Source: an uncultured Anaerolineaceae bacterium (lineage in GTDB: Bacteria > Chloroflexota > Anaerolineae > Anaerolineales > Anaerolineaceae). From it: DNA of 60,540 nucleotides. The stretch spans positions 1 to 60,540 of the forward strand of contig CAZOYK010000001.1 in assembly GCA_964584065.1 (NCBI GenBank). Direction: 5' to 3'. Positions within the stretch are counted from its first letter, which is position 1. The number at the start of each line of letters is the position of its first letter. Made by a program: the position numbers and the translations under genes. This document shows positions 35,621 to 60,462 of the stretch, one piece after another. Below the pieces are notes generated by a model that saw only the letters and a program-made list of their open reading frames with translations, was not told the DNA's origin and did no database searches.

Positions 35621-36163
35621 ATGGAAACACAACTGACTGAACAAGAAAACACGCGCGCGTTGGAGATGCTCACCCACATCGAAGCCAACCCCGATATCTC
35701 CCAGGTGACTCTGGCGGATGAGCTCGGCGTAGCCGTGGGCACGATCAACTGGCACCTCAAGCGCCTGATCTCCAAGGGCTACGTCAAAGTCAAGCGCGCC
35801 CAGCGCAAAAAGCTGCGCTACATTATCACCCCCGAAGGCATCGCCCTGCGTGCCAACCTGACCGTCGACTACATCAAGACCTCTTTCGACCTCTACCGCC
35901 GCGTGCGCGAGCGCAGCAACCGCTGCCTTGAGCAGCTCAAAGCCGCCGGCTACAATGAGGTTCACATCCTCGGTGAAGGCGAGATCGCCGAGGTGATCAG
36001 CCTGACTTGCCTCGAACAGGGCGTTTTGTTGACCCAGTCAAAAAATGCCCCAAAGATCACTATCGAGGGCATTAAACTTGCACTGATATTACCTGAAGGT
36101 GTGCCTGACTCCACACCCTCACATCCAACCTACTCTGGAGGCGAACATGGAAAAGGCTCTTGA
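35621..36163 (+). CDS. MarR-family, EPS-associated winged-helix regulator with extra C-terminal domain
   Basis: [49 protein letters not shown] follows the EPS-associated MarR pattern. Sits at the head of the glycan operon. Confidence 0.7.
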
Positions 36164-37106
36164 CCTTGCCACTAAACGTATTTGTGTCACCGGCGGAGCC
36201 GGCTTTTTGGGCACGCACCTCATCCGCAGGCTCAAAGAGCACGGCGCGCGTGAGATCTTTGTGCCGCAATATCCGGAATACGACCTGGTGCGCGAAGCCG
36301 ACATCATCCGCATGATCGACACTGCCAAACCGGATATCATCATCCACCTGGCAGCCAAGGTCGGCGGCATCGGCGCCAACCGCGAAAAGCCCGGCGAATT
36401 CTTCTACGACAACCTGATGATGGGCGTGCAGCTCATCCACCAAGCCTGGCTGAAAGGCGTCGAAAAATTCGTGGCGATCGGCACCATCTGCGCCTATCCC
36501 AAGTTCACCCCCATTCCTTTTAAAGAGGAAGATCTCTGGAACGGCTACCCCGAAGAAACCAACGCCCCCTACGGGCTGGCAAAAAAGATGTTGTTGGTGC
36601 AGTCGCAGGCATACCGCGAGCAGTACGGCTACAACTCGATCTTCCTGCTGCCTGTCAACCTCTACGGTCCGGGCGACAACTTCAATCCTGCCAGTTCGCA
36701 CGTCATTCCAGCCCTGATCCGCAAGTACCTTGAAGCCAAAGAACAGGGCGCGGATGAGATCGTTGCCTGGGGTGATGGCAGCCCAACCCGGGAATTCATC
36801 TACGTGGAAGACGCGGCTGAAGGAATCACCCTCGCAACCGAAAGTTACAACATTTCCGAACCGGTCAATATCGGCTCGAGTTTTGAGATCTCGATTAAAG
36901 ACCTGACCGAAACCATCGCGCGTCTGACTGGTTTCAACGGCACAATCCGCTGGGACACGACCAAACCCAACGGTCAGCCCCGCCGCAAACTCGACACCAC
37001 CCGCGCCCGTGAGGCTTTCGGCTTTGAAGCTAAAACTGACTTTGAAGAAGGTCTCAAGCGCACCATCGCCTGGTATGCCAACGAGAGGGCCAATGGCAGA
37101 GGCTAA
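36147..37106 (+). CDS. fcl: GDP-L-fucose synthase (GDP-4-keto-6-deoxymannose 3,5-epimerase/4-reductase)
   Basis: [37 protein letters not shown]. Start set to ATG 36147 (GGAGG RBS). Confidence 0.8.
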
Positions 37107-37935
37107 TCTGAACGCTGCCCAGGTGGTGACCCTCAAACCTGCCAAAGGCTGGCTGGGGATCGACCTGAAAGAGCTCTGGCATTACCGCGAGCTGATTTAC
37201 TTTTTAACCTGGCGCGACATCAAAGTGCGCTACAAGCAGGCTGTGCTCGGCATTGCCTGGTCGGTGCTGCAGCCTGTGCTCACCACCGCCATCATGACGC
37301 TTGTATTCGGCGTGTTGCTCAAGGTTGAGTCGGACGGTCTGCCCTACCCGGTGTTTGCGCTTTCGGCCTTACTCCCCTGGCATCTCTTCCAGCTTTCATT
37401 GCAGAAAAGCAGCATCAGCCTGGTGGGCAATGCCAACCTGCTCACCAAGGTTTACTTTCCGCGGGTGATCATCCCGTTCAGCTCGGTGCTGGCAGCCCTG
37501 GTGGACTTTGTGATTTCGCTGATGTTGCTCTTCATCACCATGGCGATCTATGGCATCCCCCTGACCTGGAACGTTCTGTGGGTTATCCCGCTGACCCTGC
37601 TGACGGTTTTGGCGGCTCTGGCGGTAGGCTTGTGGCTCTCGGCGCTCAACGTGCAGTATCGCGACGTGCAGCAGATGGTGCCATTCCTGATCCAGATCTG
37701 GATGTACGCTACGCCAATTGTCTACCCCATCAACACCATCCCCGAAGGCACCTTCCGTTATATCTACAGCCTCAACCCGATGGTGGGGGTAGTGCAGGGC
37801 TTCAGGTGGGCGTTCTTCGGCGGCTCTCCGCCGGATATGACTTTACTCATTTCCAGCCTGGCGGTTTTGCTTTTACTCGTTTCAGGCCTGTTCTTTTTCC
37901 GGCGCATGGAAAAAACTTTTGCGGATGTGGTGTAA
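37093..37935 (+). CDS. wzm: ABC-2 type polysaccharide/teichoic-acid exporter permease
   Basis: [35 protein letters not shown] and six TM helices. ATG 37093 overlaps the fcl stop by 14 nt. Confidence 0.85.
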
Positions 37936-58888: not shown

Positions 58889-59653
58889 ATGAGCGATTCA
58901 AAGAAAACCATCCTGATCACCGGCGCCGCTGGCGGCGTGGGGCGGGCGACCGTGAAGCTCTTCCACGAACGCGGCTTCCGGGTGATTGGCGTTGACCGAC
59001 AGAGCGTTTACCCGGAATTCCCTGAAGATGGTCTGTTCATCCAGGCAGACATCTCCATTCCCGAGAACCTTGAGAAGATCTTCGTCCAAGCGACCCAATT
59101 CACACCCACTCTGGACGTGCTGGTGAACAATGCCGGCTTCCAGGTGACCAAACCCCTGGTTGAGACGACGGTGGAAGAGTGGGATATGGTGATGGCTTCG
59201 AACCTGCGCTCAGTCTTCCTGGGTGCCAAGCTGGCTTACCCGCTGCTAAAAGCGGAAGGCGGCGGCGCAATCGTGAACGTTTCATCGGTGCATGCCGTGG
59301 CTACCAGCGCTAACATTGCGGCTTATGCTGCCAGCAAAGGCGGACTGCTCGCATTGACCCGAGCCATGGCGATCGAATTCGCGCCGGATAACATCCGCGT
59401 GAACGCCGTGCTGCCCGGGGCAGTCGACACGCCCATGTTGCGTGCCGGTTTCCACCGCGGACGAGATGACGAGGCGTCCGAAGAGAGCCAGCTGGCAGCC
59501 CTGGCAGCCAAAACCGTCAACGGACGCGTAGCGCTGCCCGAAGAAATCGCATCCGTGATCTACTTCCTGGCAGATGCAACCCAGTCCAGCTTTATCACCG
59601 GGCAGGGCTTGCTGGCTGATGGCGGAGCCACCTGCCGCTTGAGCACGGAGTGA
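58889..59653 (+). CDS. SDR-family oxidoreductase
   Basis: ITGAAGGVGRA, NNAG, YAASKGG. Confidence 0.8.
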   Translation: MSDSKKTILITGAAGGVGRATVKLFHERGFRVIGVDRQSVYPEFPEDGLFIQADISIPENLEKIFVQATQFTPTLDVLVNNAGFQVTKPLVETTVEEWDMVMASNLRSVFLGAKLAYPLLKAEGGGAIVNVSSVHAVATSANIAAYAASKGGLLALTRAMAIEFAPDNIRVNAVLPGAVDTPMLRAGFHRGRDDEASEESQLAALAAKTVNGRVALPEEIASVIYFLADATQSSFITGQGLLADGGATCRLSTE

Positions 59654-59655
59654 GC

Positions 59656-60462
59656 ATGAGCCAGCCAAACCCAACCCCTGAATTGTCTTCCCTGGGTCGC
59701 CTTGCCCGCAATGGCTACGACTTCCTCAAGCGCGTTCCTGAGCTCCCTGCCGCTTACCTGCACCCCTGGCGGCGCGAATCCCGCCGCAGGCTGGCACAGT
59801 TGAAGGATAGCCACAAAGGAGAACGCTGTTTCATCGCCGGCAACGGTCCTTCCCTCAAGAACACAGACCTCAGCCGGCTCAAGAACGAGTTCGCCATCGG
59901 TATGAATCGGGTCTTTTTGGCTTCCGAGGAGCTTGGTTTCACCCCGAGCTGCCTGGTGTGCGTCAATGATTTGGTGGTGGAACAATCCGTGCCCGAGTTC
60001 AATGCCCTGCAGATGCCCAAGTTTTTCTCCTGGCGTGCCAGCAAGTGGCTACGGATGGATGACTGGACGCACTTCATCTACACCACCTACACCACACCAA
60101 AATTCTCGACTGATGTACGCAATCGGGTTTGGGAAGGCGCCACGGTGACCAACGTTTGTCTGCAATTGGCTTACCACATGGGTTTTCAGGAAGTGATCCT
60201 GATCGGCGTCGACCACAGCTTCGCCACCAAGGGCAAACCCAATACCACGGTGCAATCCGAAGGCGATGACCCCAACCATTTCTCCGCCGCTTACTTTGGT
60301 AAGGGCTTCCGTTGGCAGCTGCCGGACCTGGAGACCTCCGAAATGGGCTATCGCATGGCTCGCCAGGCTTACGAAAAAGCTGGCAGGCGCGTTTTGGACG
60401 CGACCATCGGCGGCAAACTGGAAATCTTCGAAAAGGTCAACTACGAAAGCTTGTTTGGGTAA
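59656..60462 (+). CDS. DUF115 / MptE-like protein (Maf / Cst-type sialyltransferase-like candidate nonulosonate transferase)
   Basis: CFIAGNGPSLKNTDL ... FAIGMNRVF ... VILIGVDHSF. GTG 59650 is an alternative start. Confidence 0.65.
   Translation: MSQPNPTPELSSLGRLARNGYDFLKRVPELPAAYLHPWRRESRRRLAQLKDSHKGERCFIAGNGPSLKNTDLSRLKNEFAIGMNRVFLASEELGFTPSCLVCVNDLVVEQSVPEFNALQMPKFFSWRASKWLRMDDWTHFIYTTYTTPKFSTDVRNRVWEGATVTNVCLQLAYHMGFQEVILIGVDHSFATKGKPNTTVQSEGDDPNHFSAAYFGKGFRWQLPDLETSEMGYRMARQAYEKAGRRVLDATIGGKLEIFEKVNYESLFG

Follow-up and report, generated by a model that had tools for sequence, protein, structure and literature searches.

A long gene cluster in an Anaerolineaceae contig predicted to build and export a nonulosonic-acid cell-surface glycan

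The window analysed here, an entire 60,540-bp contig of an Anaerolineaceae (Chloroflexota) metagenome-assembled genome, carries a long operon whose most likely role is to build a sugar polymer with sialic-acid-like sugars and export it to the cell surface. Judged from its sequence, the region would form one long transcription unit, consisting of a promoter, a MarR/EPS-type regulator and at least 24 genes and running past the contig end, and would encode an ABC-transporter-dependent pathway for a nonulosonic-acid glycan on the surface of a monoderm member of the Anaerolineaceae. We assign this explanation as a whole, the proposed steps included, a probability of roughly 0.6. The gene families and their order are as follows.

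21720..23132, -: LCP + LytR_C protein, by domain architecture a candidate glycopolymer-peptidoglycan ligase; outside the operon, its association conjectural
35577..35604, +: promoter-like site, TTGACA-16 nt-TATAAT (12/12 match to the sigma-70 consensus)
35621..36163, +: gene 0, winged-helix MarR-family regulator, EPS-associated type (TIGR04176 68 bits, cut-off 88)
36147..37106, +: g01, Fcl-like NDP-4-keto-6-deoxyhexose epimerase/reductase, extended SDR (GDPFucSynFcl 303 bits, cut-off 500)
37123..37935, +: g02, Wzm, ABC-2 permease with 5-6 TM segments (ABC2_membrane)
37935..39224, +: g03, Wzt, ABC ATPase with C-terminal carbohydrate-binding domain (ABC_tran; Wzt_C 40.3 bits, cut-off 30.4)
39224..40888, +: g04, GT-B protein 1, HP motif VIRVHPGE, putative CMP-ulosonic-acid transferase (Capsule_synth (KpsS/KpsC) 21.6 bits, cut-off 20)
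40885..41742, +: g05, SAM methyltransferase (Methyltransf_11) that may cap chain ends or methylate a sugar
41769..42782, +: g06, PseB, inverting UDP-GlcNAc 4,6-dehydratase (TIGR03589 492 bits, cut-off 408, equivalog level)
42782..43702, +: g07, RmlD-like 4-ketoreductase (TIGR01214 208 bits, cut-off 224)
43714..44778, +: g08, NeuB1, NeuB-family synthase with SAF domain
44785..45900, +: g09, GT4 retaining-type glycosyltransferase
45897..46538, +: g10, predicted lipoprotein of no known family (signal peptide, invariant Cys19, Pro/Thr-rich linker)
46548..47369, +: g11, CT1, CMP-type cytidylyltransferase (best PDB match 6oew)
47362..48258, +: g12, SAM methyltransferase (Methyltransf_23), CT1 fusion partner
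48258..49211, +: g13, GT-A-fold protein (no Pfam, NCBIfam or PDB sequence match)
49223..50179, +: g14, GT2 glycosyltransferase (GC 0.49)
50182..51627, +: g15, GT-B protein 2, HP motif LVRLHPNH (BFO_1060 E=1e-12; GC 0.46)
51629..52621, +: g16, GFO/IDH/MocA oxidoreductase
52656..53480, +: g17, short-chain dehydrogenase (best NCBIfam model PRK09186)
53474..54709, +: g18, CT2, NeuA/PseF-like cytidylyltransferase fused to a YrbI/KdsC-family HAD phosphatase
54699..55577, +: g19, NeuB2, 292-aa NeuB-family synthase lacking the SAF domain
55579..57201, +: g20, GT-B protein 3, HP motif (best structural matches by TM-score KpsC and WbbB)
57198..57869, +: g21, CT3, cytidylyltransferase closest to mouse CMAS and P. 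parvum CMP-Kdn synthetase
57886..58866, +: g22, D-2-hydroxyacid dehydrogenase family protein
58889..59653, +: g23, short-chain dehydrogenase
59656..60462, +: g24, short (268 aa) MptE-like/DUF115 protein

An earlier note on this DNA had described 24 same-strand genes joined mostly by stop/start overlaps or short gaps, and the coordinates agreed: 24 ORFs lie within 36147-60462, every one on the + strand, and the 23 junctions span -11 to +34 nt, with ten overlaps (-1, -4, -7, -8 or -11), twelve gaps of 1-26 nt and a single gap of 34 nt. The overlaps suggest translational coupling, and a GGAG-like Shine-Dalgarno sequence was seen at most ORF starts. The gene content given earlier, from fcl to the DUF115 gene, stood; the boundaries did not. 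The true start is one gene before fcl, at gene 0, which overlaps fcl by 17 nt and in relatives always lies directly upstream of g01; counting it, the operon has 25 genes. The sigma-70-like site precedes gene 0 and is itself preceded by a terminator-like hairpin (35533-35552). At the other end the operon is truncated, because the window is the whole contig; relatives continue beyond g24 with two GT2 genes and an FkbM methyltransferase gene, followed by a convergent EamA gene. A hairpin and T tract directly 3' of g24 may partly end transcription there, which counts against our main reading. Spacing is tight throughout, with no enrichment of internal promoters or terminators.

Comparison with other genomes, a check proposed earlier, found the order HTH-g01...g24 again in no fewer than 19 GTDB species representatives and on some 30 metagenome contigs, with protein identity down to 40-60%. 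Because the order recurs so widely, the arrangement is beyond chance, and the operon is conserved among filamentous Anaerolineaceae (Chloroflexota). Genes g06, g07 and g08 adjoin one another in all related loci that extend to them. Other Anaerolineales swap modules independently: a HAD-less cytidylyltransferase occurs with a NeuB-SAF-TIM fusion, and g15 and a radical-SAM gene are each optional.

Both NeuB-family synthases named in the earlier note were confirmed by Pfam and all three cytidylyltransferases carry CTP_transf_3, in each case far above threshold. Neither synthase reaches the equivalog cut-off for NeuB (Neu5Ac) or PseI, and PDB bit scores placed neither with the Neu5Ac, Leg or Pse synthases. 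The cytidylyltransferases belong to three different CMP-type subfamilies. The suggestion of two or three CMP-activated acids held for the count of these enzymes; three different acids were not established, because two synthases stand against three cytidylyltransferases. This mismatch and the synthase scores both count against the main reading. The four dehydrogenases or reductases (GFO/IDH/MocA, two SDRs and the 2-hydroxyacid dehydrogenase) and two methyltransferases (40885, 47362) were recovered as claimed. The gene called fcl in the earlier note is Fcl-like and falls short at the equivalog level; no gmd was present. The families in the earlier inventory were sound, with PseB (41769), the RmlD-like reductase (42782), the lipoprotein (45897) and the GT-A protein (48258) omitted from it.

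We infer the biosynthetic steps from these families. In a first module (A), PseB would turn UDP-GlcNAc into a 4-keto-6-deoxy-L sugar, and the adjoining RmlD-like enzyme, with no aminotransferase beside it, would reduce C4 instead of allowing amination. After loss of UDP, NeuB1 would convert the product into a 5-acetamido-3,5,9-trideoxy (7-hydroxy) nonulosonic acid, from which CT1 would make a CMP-sugar, with methylation by g12; CT1 and g12 are fused in 17 of 40 related loci. Alternatively, the PseB/RmlD-like product may be used directly as a 6-deoxy-L-HexNAc donor. The canonical CMP-pseudaminic acid pathway (PseB, C, H, G, I, F) shares with the operon an equivalog-level PseB, a NeuB-family synthase and cytidylyltransferases; the operon differs in its reductase after PseB and encodes no PseC, PseH, PseG or NeuC. 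The C7 hydroxyl would remain because the reductase replaces amination, and the product would resemble a trideoxy counterpart of fusaminic acid (PMC7371886). The lack of these four enzymes in the operon counts against the main reading, as does the failure to find there an enzyme releasing the PseB/reductase product from UDP. Three candidates for that activity were rejected: g09, considered as PseG-like, is an ordinary GT4, g13 has a GT-A fold and g10 is extracytoplasmic.

In a second module (B), the SAF-less NeuB2 would join PEP to a 6-phosphorylated hexose, either Man-6-P or ManNAc-6-P; CT2 would then strip the 9-phosphate with its HAD domain and form the CMP-sugar with its cytidylyltransferase domain, in parallel with the route to Neu5Ac or Kdn in animals, Leptospira and Bacteroides (PMC3438082). 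The HAD motifs DFDGV and GNDLND are intact, and in the PDB the phosphatase domain is matched best by 3mmz, a HAD protein from Streptomyces avermitilis. Cytidylyltransferase-HAD fusions pair with a short SAF-less NeuB in 43 of 43 loci, which come from Chloroflexota, an archaeon, Planctomycetota and Proteobacteria, and HAD-less cytidylyltransferases pair with long NeuB forms in 16 of 16 loci, the one checked having SAF. In the known phospho routes, as in the operon, the synthase is coupled to a YrbI/KdsC-family phosphatase. Bacteroides has a Kdn-9-P synthase plus phosphatase; in Leptospira the synthase and phosphatase are fused, whereas here an apparently catalytically intact phosphatase is fused to the cytidylyltransferase, in the same order as in vertebrate CMP-sialic acid synthetase (3ewi, 1qwj matches). 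The operon synthase further differs in lacking a SAF/AFP domain, and the operon encodes no kinase or 2-epimerase to supply the hexose 6-phosphate, which counts against the main reading. The GFO, SDR and 2-hydroxyacid dehydrogenases may tailor or epimerise the acids, with CT3 activating the tailored form; in Acinetobacter, extra dehydrogenases beside nonulosonic-acid modules yield epimers (PMC5595891).

The three HP-motif GT-B transferases of the earlier note were borne out by an R-x-H-P motif in all of g04, g15 and g20 and by structural matches. An AF2 model (pLDDT 83) gave its highest TM-scores to the beta-Kdo transferases KpsC and WbbB, the similarity to KpsC being moderate (TM ~0.5 on target). 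H359-P360 of g20 is invariant in 19-20 orthologues, many of which carry a Capsule_synth domain; g04 and g20 are 23% identical, and g15 is accessory (absent from 30 of 40 related loci). KpsC/KpsS (GT107), WbbB (GT99), bacterial sialyltransferases and Tanf_01245/BFO_1060 have in common with these proteins the GT-B fold and a conserved HP motif where the C-terminal domain begins. KpsC gives a weak profile match to g20, and the operon proteins match the model of the BFO_1060 family, which has a genetic role in Pse/Leg transfer in T. forsythia (PMC5420450). Unlike members of those families, they score far below cut-offs (BFO_1060 48 bits vs 200) and are 480-554 aa long, g20 having an extra N-terminal helix and a cluster of four invariant cysteines (84, 91, 106, 109). 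The GT4 and GT2 enzymes were found at 44785 and 49223, as claimed; g14 is hypervariable between relatives, and g13 has an invariant N-A-D (residues 93-95) and more than 7,800 homologues. The DUF115/GT42-like label at 59656 also fits, the GT42 sialyltransferase Cst-II being the only PDB sequence match of g24.

All glycosyltransferases of the operon are soluble, and would assemble the chain on a lipid carrier on the cytoplasmic side of the membrane; they comprise the three KpsC/BFO_1060-like GT-B proteins, the DUF115/GT42-like protein, the GT4, the GT2s and the new GT-A. The chain would be capped by a terminal acid or through a methyltransferase, the Wzt C-domain recognise the cap and Wzm/Wzt export the polymer. 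Pfam upheld the exporter, and the top NCBIfam models of g03 were TagH and galactan Wzt. Searches of the window agreed with the earlier note in finding no multi-TM Wzx/Wzy, no initiating phosphoglycosyltransferase (WecA/TagO or Bac_transf), which counts against the main reading, and no OPX/Wza-type outer-membrane export protein. A probable monoderm host is in keeping with the passage of PMC13319060 that cites Sutcliffe, in which Chloroflexota are regarded as monoderm and as having no BAM or LPS genes. Outside the membrane, an LCP enzyme would most likely ligate the polymer to peptidoglycan, giving a teichulosonic-acid-like wall polymer. The LCP protein reported 13 kb upstream of the operon is indeed there, on the opposite strand among unrelated genes, a location that counts against the main reading.

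Which sugars are present, and whether the chain sits on wall, protein or lipid, we infer, and other readings bear on both. It is rather unlikely that the same machinery instead decorates proteins, be they S-layer, sheath or lipoproteins; an O-oligosaccharyltransferase would then attach the glycan, or the Maf-like DUF115 enzyme would do so directly. Proteins of the DUF115/Maf type are best known for transferring Pse or Leg to flagellin, and Pfam places g24 among them; at 268 aa, however, it has none of the flanking domains seen in full-length Maf proteins and, like the other transferases, is cytoplasmic, with no signal peptide. The unlinked LCP gene and the conserved lipoprotein with its Pro/Thr-rich linker favour protein attachment, as do the nonulosonic acids on Leptospira surface lipoproteins (PMC3438082) and the Pse or Leg that T. 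forsythia S-layer O-glycans carry via the BFO_1060 family (PMC5420450). Against it, no O-OTase or Wzy_C-type multi-TM protein was found in the window, and long capped polymers are the typical cargo of Wzt_C-type exporters.

We consider it improbable that, in the manner of Gram-negative group 2 capsules, a KpsS/KpsC-like HP-motif GT-B primes the polymer not on undecaprenyl phosphate but on a membrane lipid, e.g. (lyso)phosphatidylglycerol, to give a lipid-anchored 'lipo-teichulosonic acid' or capsule. The missing phosphoglycosyltransferase, the Capsule_synth matches of g04 itself and of many g20 orthologues, the KpsC structural matches and the presence of an ABC exporter would fit. That exporter is of the Wzm/Wzt-CBM type rather than KpsMT (KpsM 53 bits, cut-off 300), the Kdo synthase KdsA is absent, WecA and TagO-like initiators are commonly encoded elsewhere in the genome, and the likeness to KpsC is only moderate. 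Very improbable is a juxtaposition of separate pathways, e.g. a 6-deoxy-L-HexNAc polysaccharide and one or two unrelated nonulosonic-acid decorations with other targets. The missing UDP-releasing enzyme between PseB/RmlD-like and NeuB1, the independent swapping of modules and the uneven numbers of synthases and cytidylyltransferases speak for it; the tight spacing without internal signals, the retention of the whole order as a block across the family, and the single exporter and single regulator speak against it.

Two characterised systems come close to the exported nonulosonic-acid polymer that we favour. The polylegionaminic acid O-antigen of Legionella pneumophila serogroup 1 is likewise ABC-transporter-dependent via Wzm/Wzt, wzm and wzt adjoining neuA/neuB-type genes (PMC3766260), and one Legionella locus (L076) contains relatives of g19 (NeuB), g18 (NeuA), g16 (GFO/IDH/MocA) and g17 (SDR). 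Legionella, however, is a diderm that ligates its polymer to lipid A-core, in contrast to the monoderm Anaerolineaceae host, and uses a canonical NeuC/aminotransferase Leg pathway with WecA in the locus; aminotransferase, NeuC and WecA are all absent here, where two synthases, three cytidylyltransferases and a phosphatase fusion occur.

The teichulosonic acids of Actinomycetota are phosphate-free wall glycopolymers of nonulosonic acid, sometimes methylated (PMC11481543). That of Streptomyces (Kdn; SCO4873-SCO4881; ligase CglA) is likewise an acidic wall polymer of a monoderm, here proposed from genes; its cluster encodes NeuA, NeuB and a NeuE-like protein (PMC3479208), and CglA has the same LCP + LytR_C architecture as the protein at 21720-23132 (PMC11481543). 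The Anaerolineaceae operon differs in its phylum, its much larger size, its transferases, its second synthase with a PseB/reductase module and its Wzt with a carbohydrate-binding domain. Among the papers searched, none dealt with nonulosonic acids in Chloroflexi or Anaerolineae, in line with the earlier remark that this combination was not known to have been characterised in such organisms. For the outer envelope layers of Chloroflexota, which are uncharacterised, the operon offers a concrete candidate.

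The genes g01 to g24 most likely encode the synthesis and ABC-transporter-dependent export of a surface glycan containing nonulosonic acids; we assign this general reading a probability of roughly 60%. The earlier note on this contig had described 24 consecutive genes on one strand with tight or overlapping junctions, and the ORF layout bears this out: junctions range from -11 to +34 nt, with 10 of 23 overlapping, 12 separated by gaps of 1–26 nt, and one by a gap of 34 nt. A GGAG-like sequence was observed ahead of most starts, and the start of g17 was refined to 52656, in place of an upstream TTG. 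Every gene family named in that note was recovered at its position in Pfam and NCBIfam scans. Two families had been missed, PseB at 41769 (matched at equivalog level) and an RmlD-like reductase at 42782; the proteins encoded at 45897 (g10) and 48258 (g13) matched no family in either scan. The main features are as follows.

35577-35604: promoter-like site
35621-36163, plus strand: winged-helix regulator gene (gene 0)
36147-60462, plus strand: operon g01-g24, encoding an Fcl-like protein (g01), Wzm (g02), Wzt (g03), HP-motif GT-B proteins (g04, g15, g20), methyltransferases (g05, g12), PseB (g06), the RmlD-like reductase (g07), NeuB1 (g08), a GT4 enzyme (g09), a predicted lipoprotein (g10), cytidylyltransferases CT1 (g11), CT2 with a HAD domain (g18) and CT3 (g21), a putative GT-A transferase (g13), a GT2 enzyme (g14), a GFO/IDH/MocA protein (g16), SDR proteins (g17, g23), NeuB2 (g19), a 2-hydroxyacid dehydrogenase (g22), and a DUF115 protein (g24)
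49223-51627, plus strand, within the operon: variable spot holding g14 and g15
60514-60532: hairpin and T tract

The promoter-like site matches the sigma-70 consensus at 12 of 12 positions and is located directly after the hairpin that trails the preceding gene. It is followed after 17 nt by the winged-helix gene, the end of which overlaps g01 by 17 nt; the product scored 68 bits against the 'MarR family EPS-associated' model (cut-off 88). This gene lies immediately 5' of g01 in all related contigs that reach it, whereas synteny farther upstream is retained only in the nearest relatives, and it was therefore counted as gene 0. A gene upstream (u3, 32831-33808) was considered as the missing Gmd and ruled out, scoring 67 bits against a gmd model with a cut-off of 415. 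Past g24, the closest relatives carry two GT2 genes and an FkbM methyltransferase gene on the same strand, followed by a convergent EamA transporter gene. Since the relatives continue beyond g24 and the window is a complete contig of 60,540 bp, the operon is truncated here; gene order in the relatives suggests that the full operon probably comprises about 28 genes. The hairpin and T tract immediately 3' of g24, where the contig ends, is possibly a partial terminator ahead of the GT2/GT2/FkbM genes of the relatives. Scans of the operon for internal promoters and terminators returned counts no higher than the shuffled expectation, and Rfam and tRNA scans found no RNA genes in the window.

One genome per GTDB species was scanned with the cytidylyltransferase-phosphatase protein (g18) as query, which returned 80 loci; the best matches, with identities of up to 93%, came from Anaerolineaceae MAGs. 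With all window proteins mapped onto these loci, the synteny check across relatives that had been suggested earlier recovered the g06-g24 order in no fewer than 19 species, with identities down to 40–60%; a Flexilinea MAG (L033) carries g17-g24. In one relative of ~65% identity, the called genes and their Pfam families run all the way from Wzt through DUF115, and a metagenome scan with g04 added ~30 more contigs in which the helix-turn-helix gene and g01 through g16 are collinear. Judged by gene order, the operon is conserved at the family level and is not a strain-specific antigen island, the g14/g15 spot excepted. There, g14 is much more diverged than its neighbours (72–80% identity in the nearest relatives, ~36% in mid-distance ones), only 10 of 40 related loci have g15 (the 30 without it include the nearest relatives), and the G+C content of the two genes is 0.46–0.49, compared with 0.55–0.60 elsewhere. 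Such a hypervariable spot within a conserved operon suggests strain-level glycan variation.

Export is assigned to g02 (ABC2_membrane, 91 bits) and g03 (ABC_tran, 76 bits), which overlap by 1 nt. The C-terminus of g03 matched Wzt_C (40.3 bits, cut-off 30.4), and its best NCBIfam matches are teichoic-acid and galactan exporters. In agreement with the earlier note, a hydropathy scan of all ORFs and Pfam located neither Wzx nor Wzy in the window, nor any protein with 10–14 TM segments, and the same approaches found no initiating phosphoglycosyltransferase (WecA/TagO, Bac_transf) within the 60.5-kb contig. None of the transferases has a TM segment; Wzm is the sole multi-TM protein of the operon, and outside the exporter only the lipoprotein g10 is not free of TM segments. 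Such a predicted gene content is the hallmark of ABC-transporter-dependent synthesis, where the entire chain is built in the cytoplasm and the C-domain of Wzt reads a chain-end cap, with precedents in E. coli O8/O9a and Klebsiella O12. Extrapolating from these precedents, the cap could be a group added by a methyltransferase or a terminal ulosonic acid.

Two predicted lipoproteins have no family assignment. In the first, g10 (45897-46538), Cys19 is invariant and the linker is Pro/Thr-rich (PTPTP); its gene is a conserved member of the operon, and a role as a cytoplasmic enzyme was ruled out on account of its lipoprotein nature. The second (34271-35506), with an LLLSSC lipobox, lies just upstream of the promoter-like site. 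Either could serve as acceptor for the glycan after its export, or handle it.

The two NeuB-family synthases (PF03102; 231 bits for NeuB1, 247 bits for NeuB2) share 30% identity, and only NeuB1 has a SAF domain. Both scored below the cut-offs of the NeuB_NnaB model (264 and 239 bits, respectively; cut-off 400) and the PseI model (245 and 190 bits; cut-off 340), and their PDB scores were near-equal for NmNeuB, SpsE (Leg-type), and PseI, so neither product can be named from sequence. PseB itself is well matched (TIGR03589, 492 bits, cut-off 408), and its gene is contiguous with those of the RmlD-like reductase and NeuB1 in all relatives that reach them. The aminotransferase PseC, the acetyltransferase PseH, PseG, and NeuC are absent from the operon, where no DegT, GNAT, or Glyco_tran_28_C domain was found, and the three Pse enzymes are absent from the relatives as well; their absence excludes the canonical Pse pathway as encoded here. 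Two candidates for hydrolases were rejected: g09 matched only PimB, BshA, and WaaG-type GT4 enzymes and not PseG, and g13, considered as a UDP-sugar hydrolase or other known enzyme, gave no PDB or Pfam signal, whether by profile or on scanning 18 members, while a fold search led to GT-A transferases. The RmlD-like reductase would turn the PseB product into a 6-deoxy-L-HexNAc, possibly a direct donor. Alternatively, after loss of UDP, a step for which no enzyme was found, this sugar could enter the synthesis of a nonulosonic acid that is 9-deoxy and bears a 7-hydroxyl; sugars of this type are known, one being a trideoxy counterpart of fusaminic acid (PMC7371886).

The three cytidylyltransferases (PF02348; 112, 76, and 114 bits) have NeuA, CMAS, and CMP-Kdn synthetase as PDB matches. 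In 17 of 40 loci, CT1 and the g12 methyltransferase form a single fused protein, a Rosetta-stone link that points to a methylated CMP-sugar. CT2 carries a YrbI/KdsC-family HAD domain (TIGR01670, 107.2 bits, cut-off 106.95) with intact DxD and GDxxD catalytic motifs. All 43 loci with this fusion, which come from several phyla and include one archaeon, have a SAF-less NeuB of 289–320 aa next to it. HAD-less cytidylyltransferases adjoin long NeuB forms instead (16 of 16 loci). The pairing of the fusion with a short NeuB supports a putative route via a 6-phospho-hexose and a 9-phospho-acid. Animals, and Bacteroides in its Kdn synthesis, follow the same phospho-intermediate route. A phospho-intermediate nonulosonic acid route has been described in Leptospira (PMC3438082). 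Among solved structures, the best match to the HAD domain is 3mmz from Streptomyces, a genus in whose walls Kdn polymers occur (PMC11481543). No gene for a hexose 6-phosphate source (kinase, NanE-type epimerase) was found in the operon; Man-6-P from central metabolism would require none.

Two variants of this second module were observed. In 16 loci from other Anaerolineales (L046, at 10822-12726 in its own coordinates, and 15 like it; L045-L059, L064, L065), a plain cytidylyltransferase and a NeuB of ~630 aa replace the CT-HAD and short NeuB pair; the one long form scanned, that of L046, is a NeuB-SAF-AP_endonuc_2 fusion, the last being a xylose-isomerase-like TIM barrel. In six relatives (L011, at 10642-11703, L016, L023, L031, L042, and L062), a radical-SAM/SPASM gene (353 aa) lies between the CT-phosphatase gene and NeuB2, which hints at further modification of that acid. 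CT3 is similar to CMAS of mouse and to the CMP-Kdn synthetase of P. parvum, and its gene travels with those of the 2-hydroxyacid dehydrogenase, an SDR protein, and the DUF115 protein. In Acinetobacter, additional dehydrogenases encoded next to nonulosonic-acid modules yield epimers (PMC5595891), and by analogy g22 and g23 may be tailoring enzymes and CT3 the activator of the tailored acid; this is the weakest part of the model.

Of the predicted transferases, g04, g15, and g20 have an R-x-H-P motif in common. Orthologues of g20 share an invariant H359-P360 and four N-terminal cysteines (C84, C91, C106, C109); the cluster at residues 84–109 looks like a zinc-binding one, which to our knowledge has no counterpart in KpsC, WbbB, or sialyltransferases. 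Against the PDB, the g20 profile gave only a weak KpsC match. Its AlphaFold model (AF2, pLDDT 83) is a GT-B fold with top TM-scores for KpsC and WbbB, both beta-Kdo transferases. Foldseek listed UDP-GlcNAc 2-epimerases first by E-value but with worse alignment, and a few orthologues matched PF02350. A NeuC-type hydrolysing 2-epimerase was nevertheless set aside, as KpsC and WbbB gave distinctly higher TM-scores and the motif reads H-P-D-E rather than the H-R-R-E of epimerases; on these grounds g20 is kept as a probable transferase, with some doubt. The Capsule_synth model was matched by g04 (21.6 bits, cut-off 20) and by many g20 orthologues, though not by g20 itself. Both g15 and g20 matched the BFO_1060 NCBIfam model at 18–48 bits, far below its cut-off of 200; that Tannerella family (BFO_1060, T. 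forsythia) is genetically tied to Pse/Leg transfer and has D/E-D/E-G and HP motifs (PMC5420450).

The protein encoded by g24 matched MptE-like PF01973 (57.4 bits, cut-off 34.6); in sequence searches of the PDB it matched nothing but the GT42 sialyltransferase Cst-II. With a single domain and 268 aa it lacks the full-length Maf architecture, and no flagellar genes were found in the window. For g13, more than 7,800 homologues exist without annotation; its model (pLDDT 86) has a GT-A fold like K4CP, TarP, and WrtF, with N-A-D invariant at the place expected for a DXD motif. Counting the GT4 and GT2 enzymes and the two further GT2s of the relatives, about ten transferases are encoded, so a heteropolymer or complex repeat would fit better than a homopolymer.

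Where this polymer goes is less certain. Within the general reading, attachment to the cell wall is the likeliest destination, at below even odds. The LCP protein noted earlier is encoded 13 kb upstream, on the strand opposite to the operon, and its LCP plus LytR_C architecture is that of the Streptomyces glycopolymer ligase CglA (PMC11481543). A glycan linked to protein instead of the wall seems unlikely to us, even though the operon has the lipoprotein g10 with its Pro/Thr-rich linker embedded in it and the Maf and BFO_1060 families act in protein glycosylation. Less probable again is a lipid-primed polymer, for which the lack of an initiator in the window and the presence of KpsC-like enzymes would argue. 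The fullest form of our model is likewise improbable as a whole. It holds that the operon makes a family-wide outer envelope polymer of Anaerolineaceae with a class of nonulosonic acid of undescribed route: a 5-acetamido-3,5,9-trideoxy (7-hydroxy) acid formed via PseB, a 4-ketoreductase, and NeuB, methylated by the methyltransferase tied to the cytidylyltransferase and joined by a Kdn/Neu-type acid that is made via a 9-phosphate, the chain being installed by a new KpsC-like branch and possibly primed without a phosphoglycosyltransferase.

Several other genes on the contig were recorded. A minus-strand gene at 904-2430 encodes a 508-aa protein with five N-terminal TM segments, a weak Sulfatase-domain match, and no NCBIfam match; this predicted architecture is that of LtaS/EptA-type lipoteichoic-acid synthases or phosphoethanolamine transferases. 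At 5510-6352 and 6340-6996 (both minus), genes for an AbiEii nucleotidyltransferase toxin and an AbiEi-like antitoxin overlap and form a type IV toxin-antitoxin pair. An 828-aa Kelch-repeat (beta-propeller) protein, uncommon in bacteria, is encoded at 7981-10467 (plus) and is followed by a stretch without any ORF of at least 150 aa (10.5-12.8 kb). At 26146-27567 (minus), a GIY-YIG nuclease domain is fused to the N-terminus of a galactokinase (GHMP kinase, galactose-binding signature), an unusual combination.

Two described systems are mechanistic relatives that work alike: the Legionella Sg1 O-antigen, a polylegionaminic acid made with wzm/wzt, neuABC, and WecA (PMC3766260), and the Kdn teichulosonic acids of Streptomyces (PMC11481543, PMC3479208). 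The operon differs from both in its host phylum, its two synthase modules and three cytidylyltransferases, its entry by PseB and a reductase without amination, its CT-phosphatase fusion, its new GT-A family, and its distinct KpsC-like branch. In the literature library that was searched, no paper dealt with nonulosonic acids, or with sialic acids, of Chloroflexi or Anaerolineae.

Members of the Anaerolineaceae are filamentous and occur in abundance in anaerobic digesters, sludge granules, and sediments, and the operon is a polysaccharide gene cluster, known from sequence only, that is unusually conserved in this abundant but poorly understood group. Among its enzymes, the PseB and reductase entry into nonulosonic acid synthesis, the CT-phosphatase and SAF-less synthase pair found across several phyla, the unannotated GT-A family, and the KpsC-like transferase family bearing a Cys cluster are worth study in their own right. 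For Chloroflexota, what makes up the layers beyond the membrane is still given only as 'polysaccharides or proteins' (PMC13319060). A regulator-headed, family-conserved operon of at least 25 genes provides a specific and testable genetic candidate for that outer layer. It predicts acidic, sialic-acid-like sugars on Anaerolineaceae cells, which would bear on the chemistry of the granule and biofilm matrix, on recognition by phages and lectins, and on cross-feeding through sialidases.
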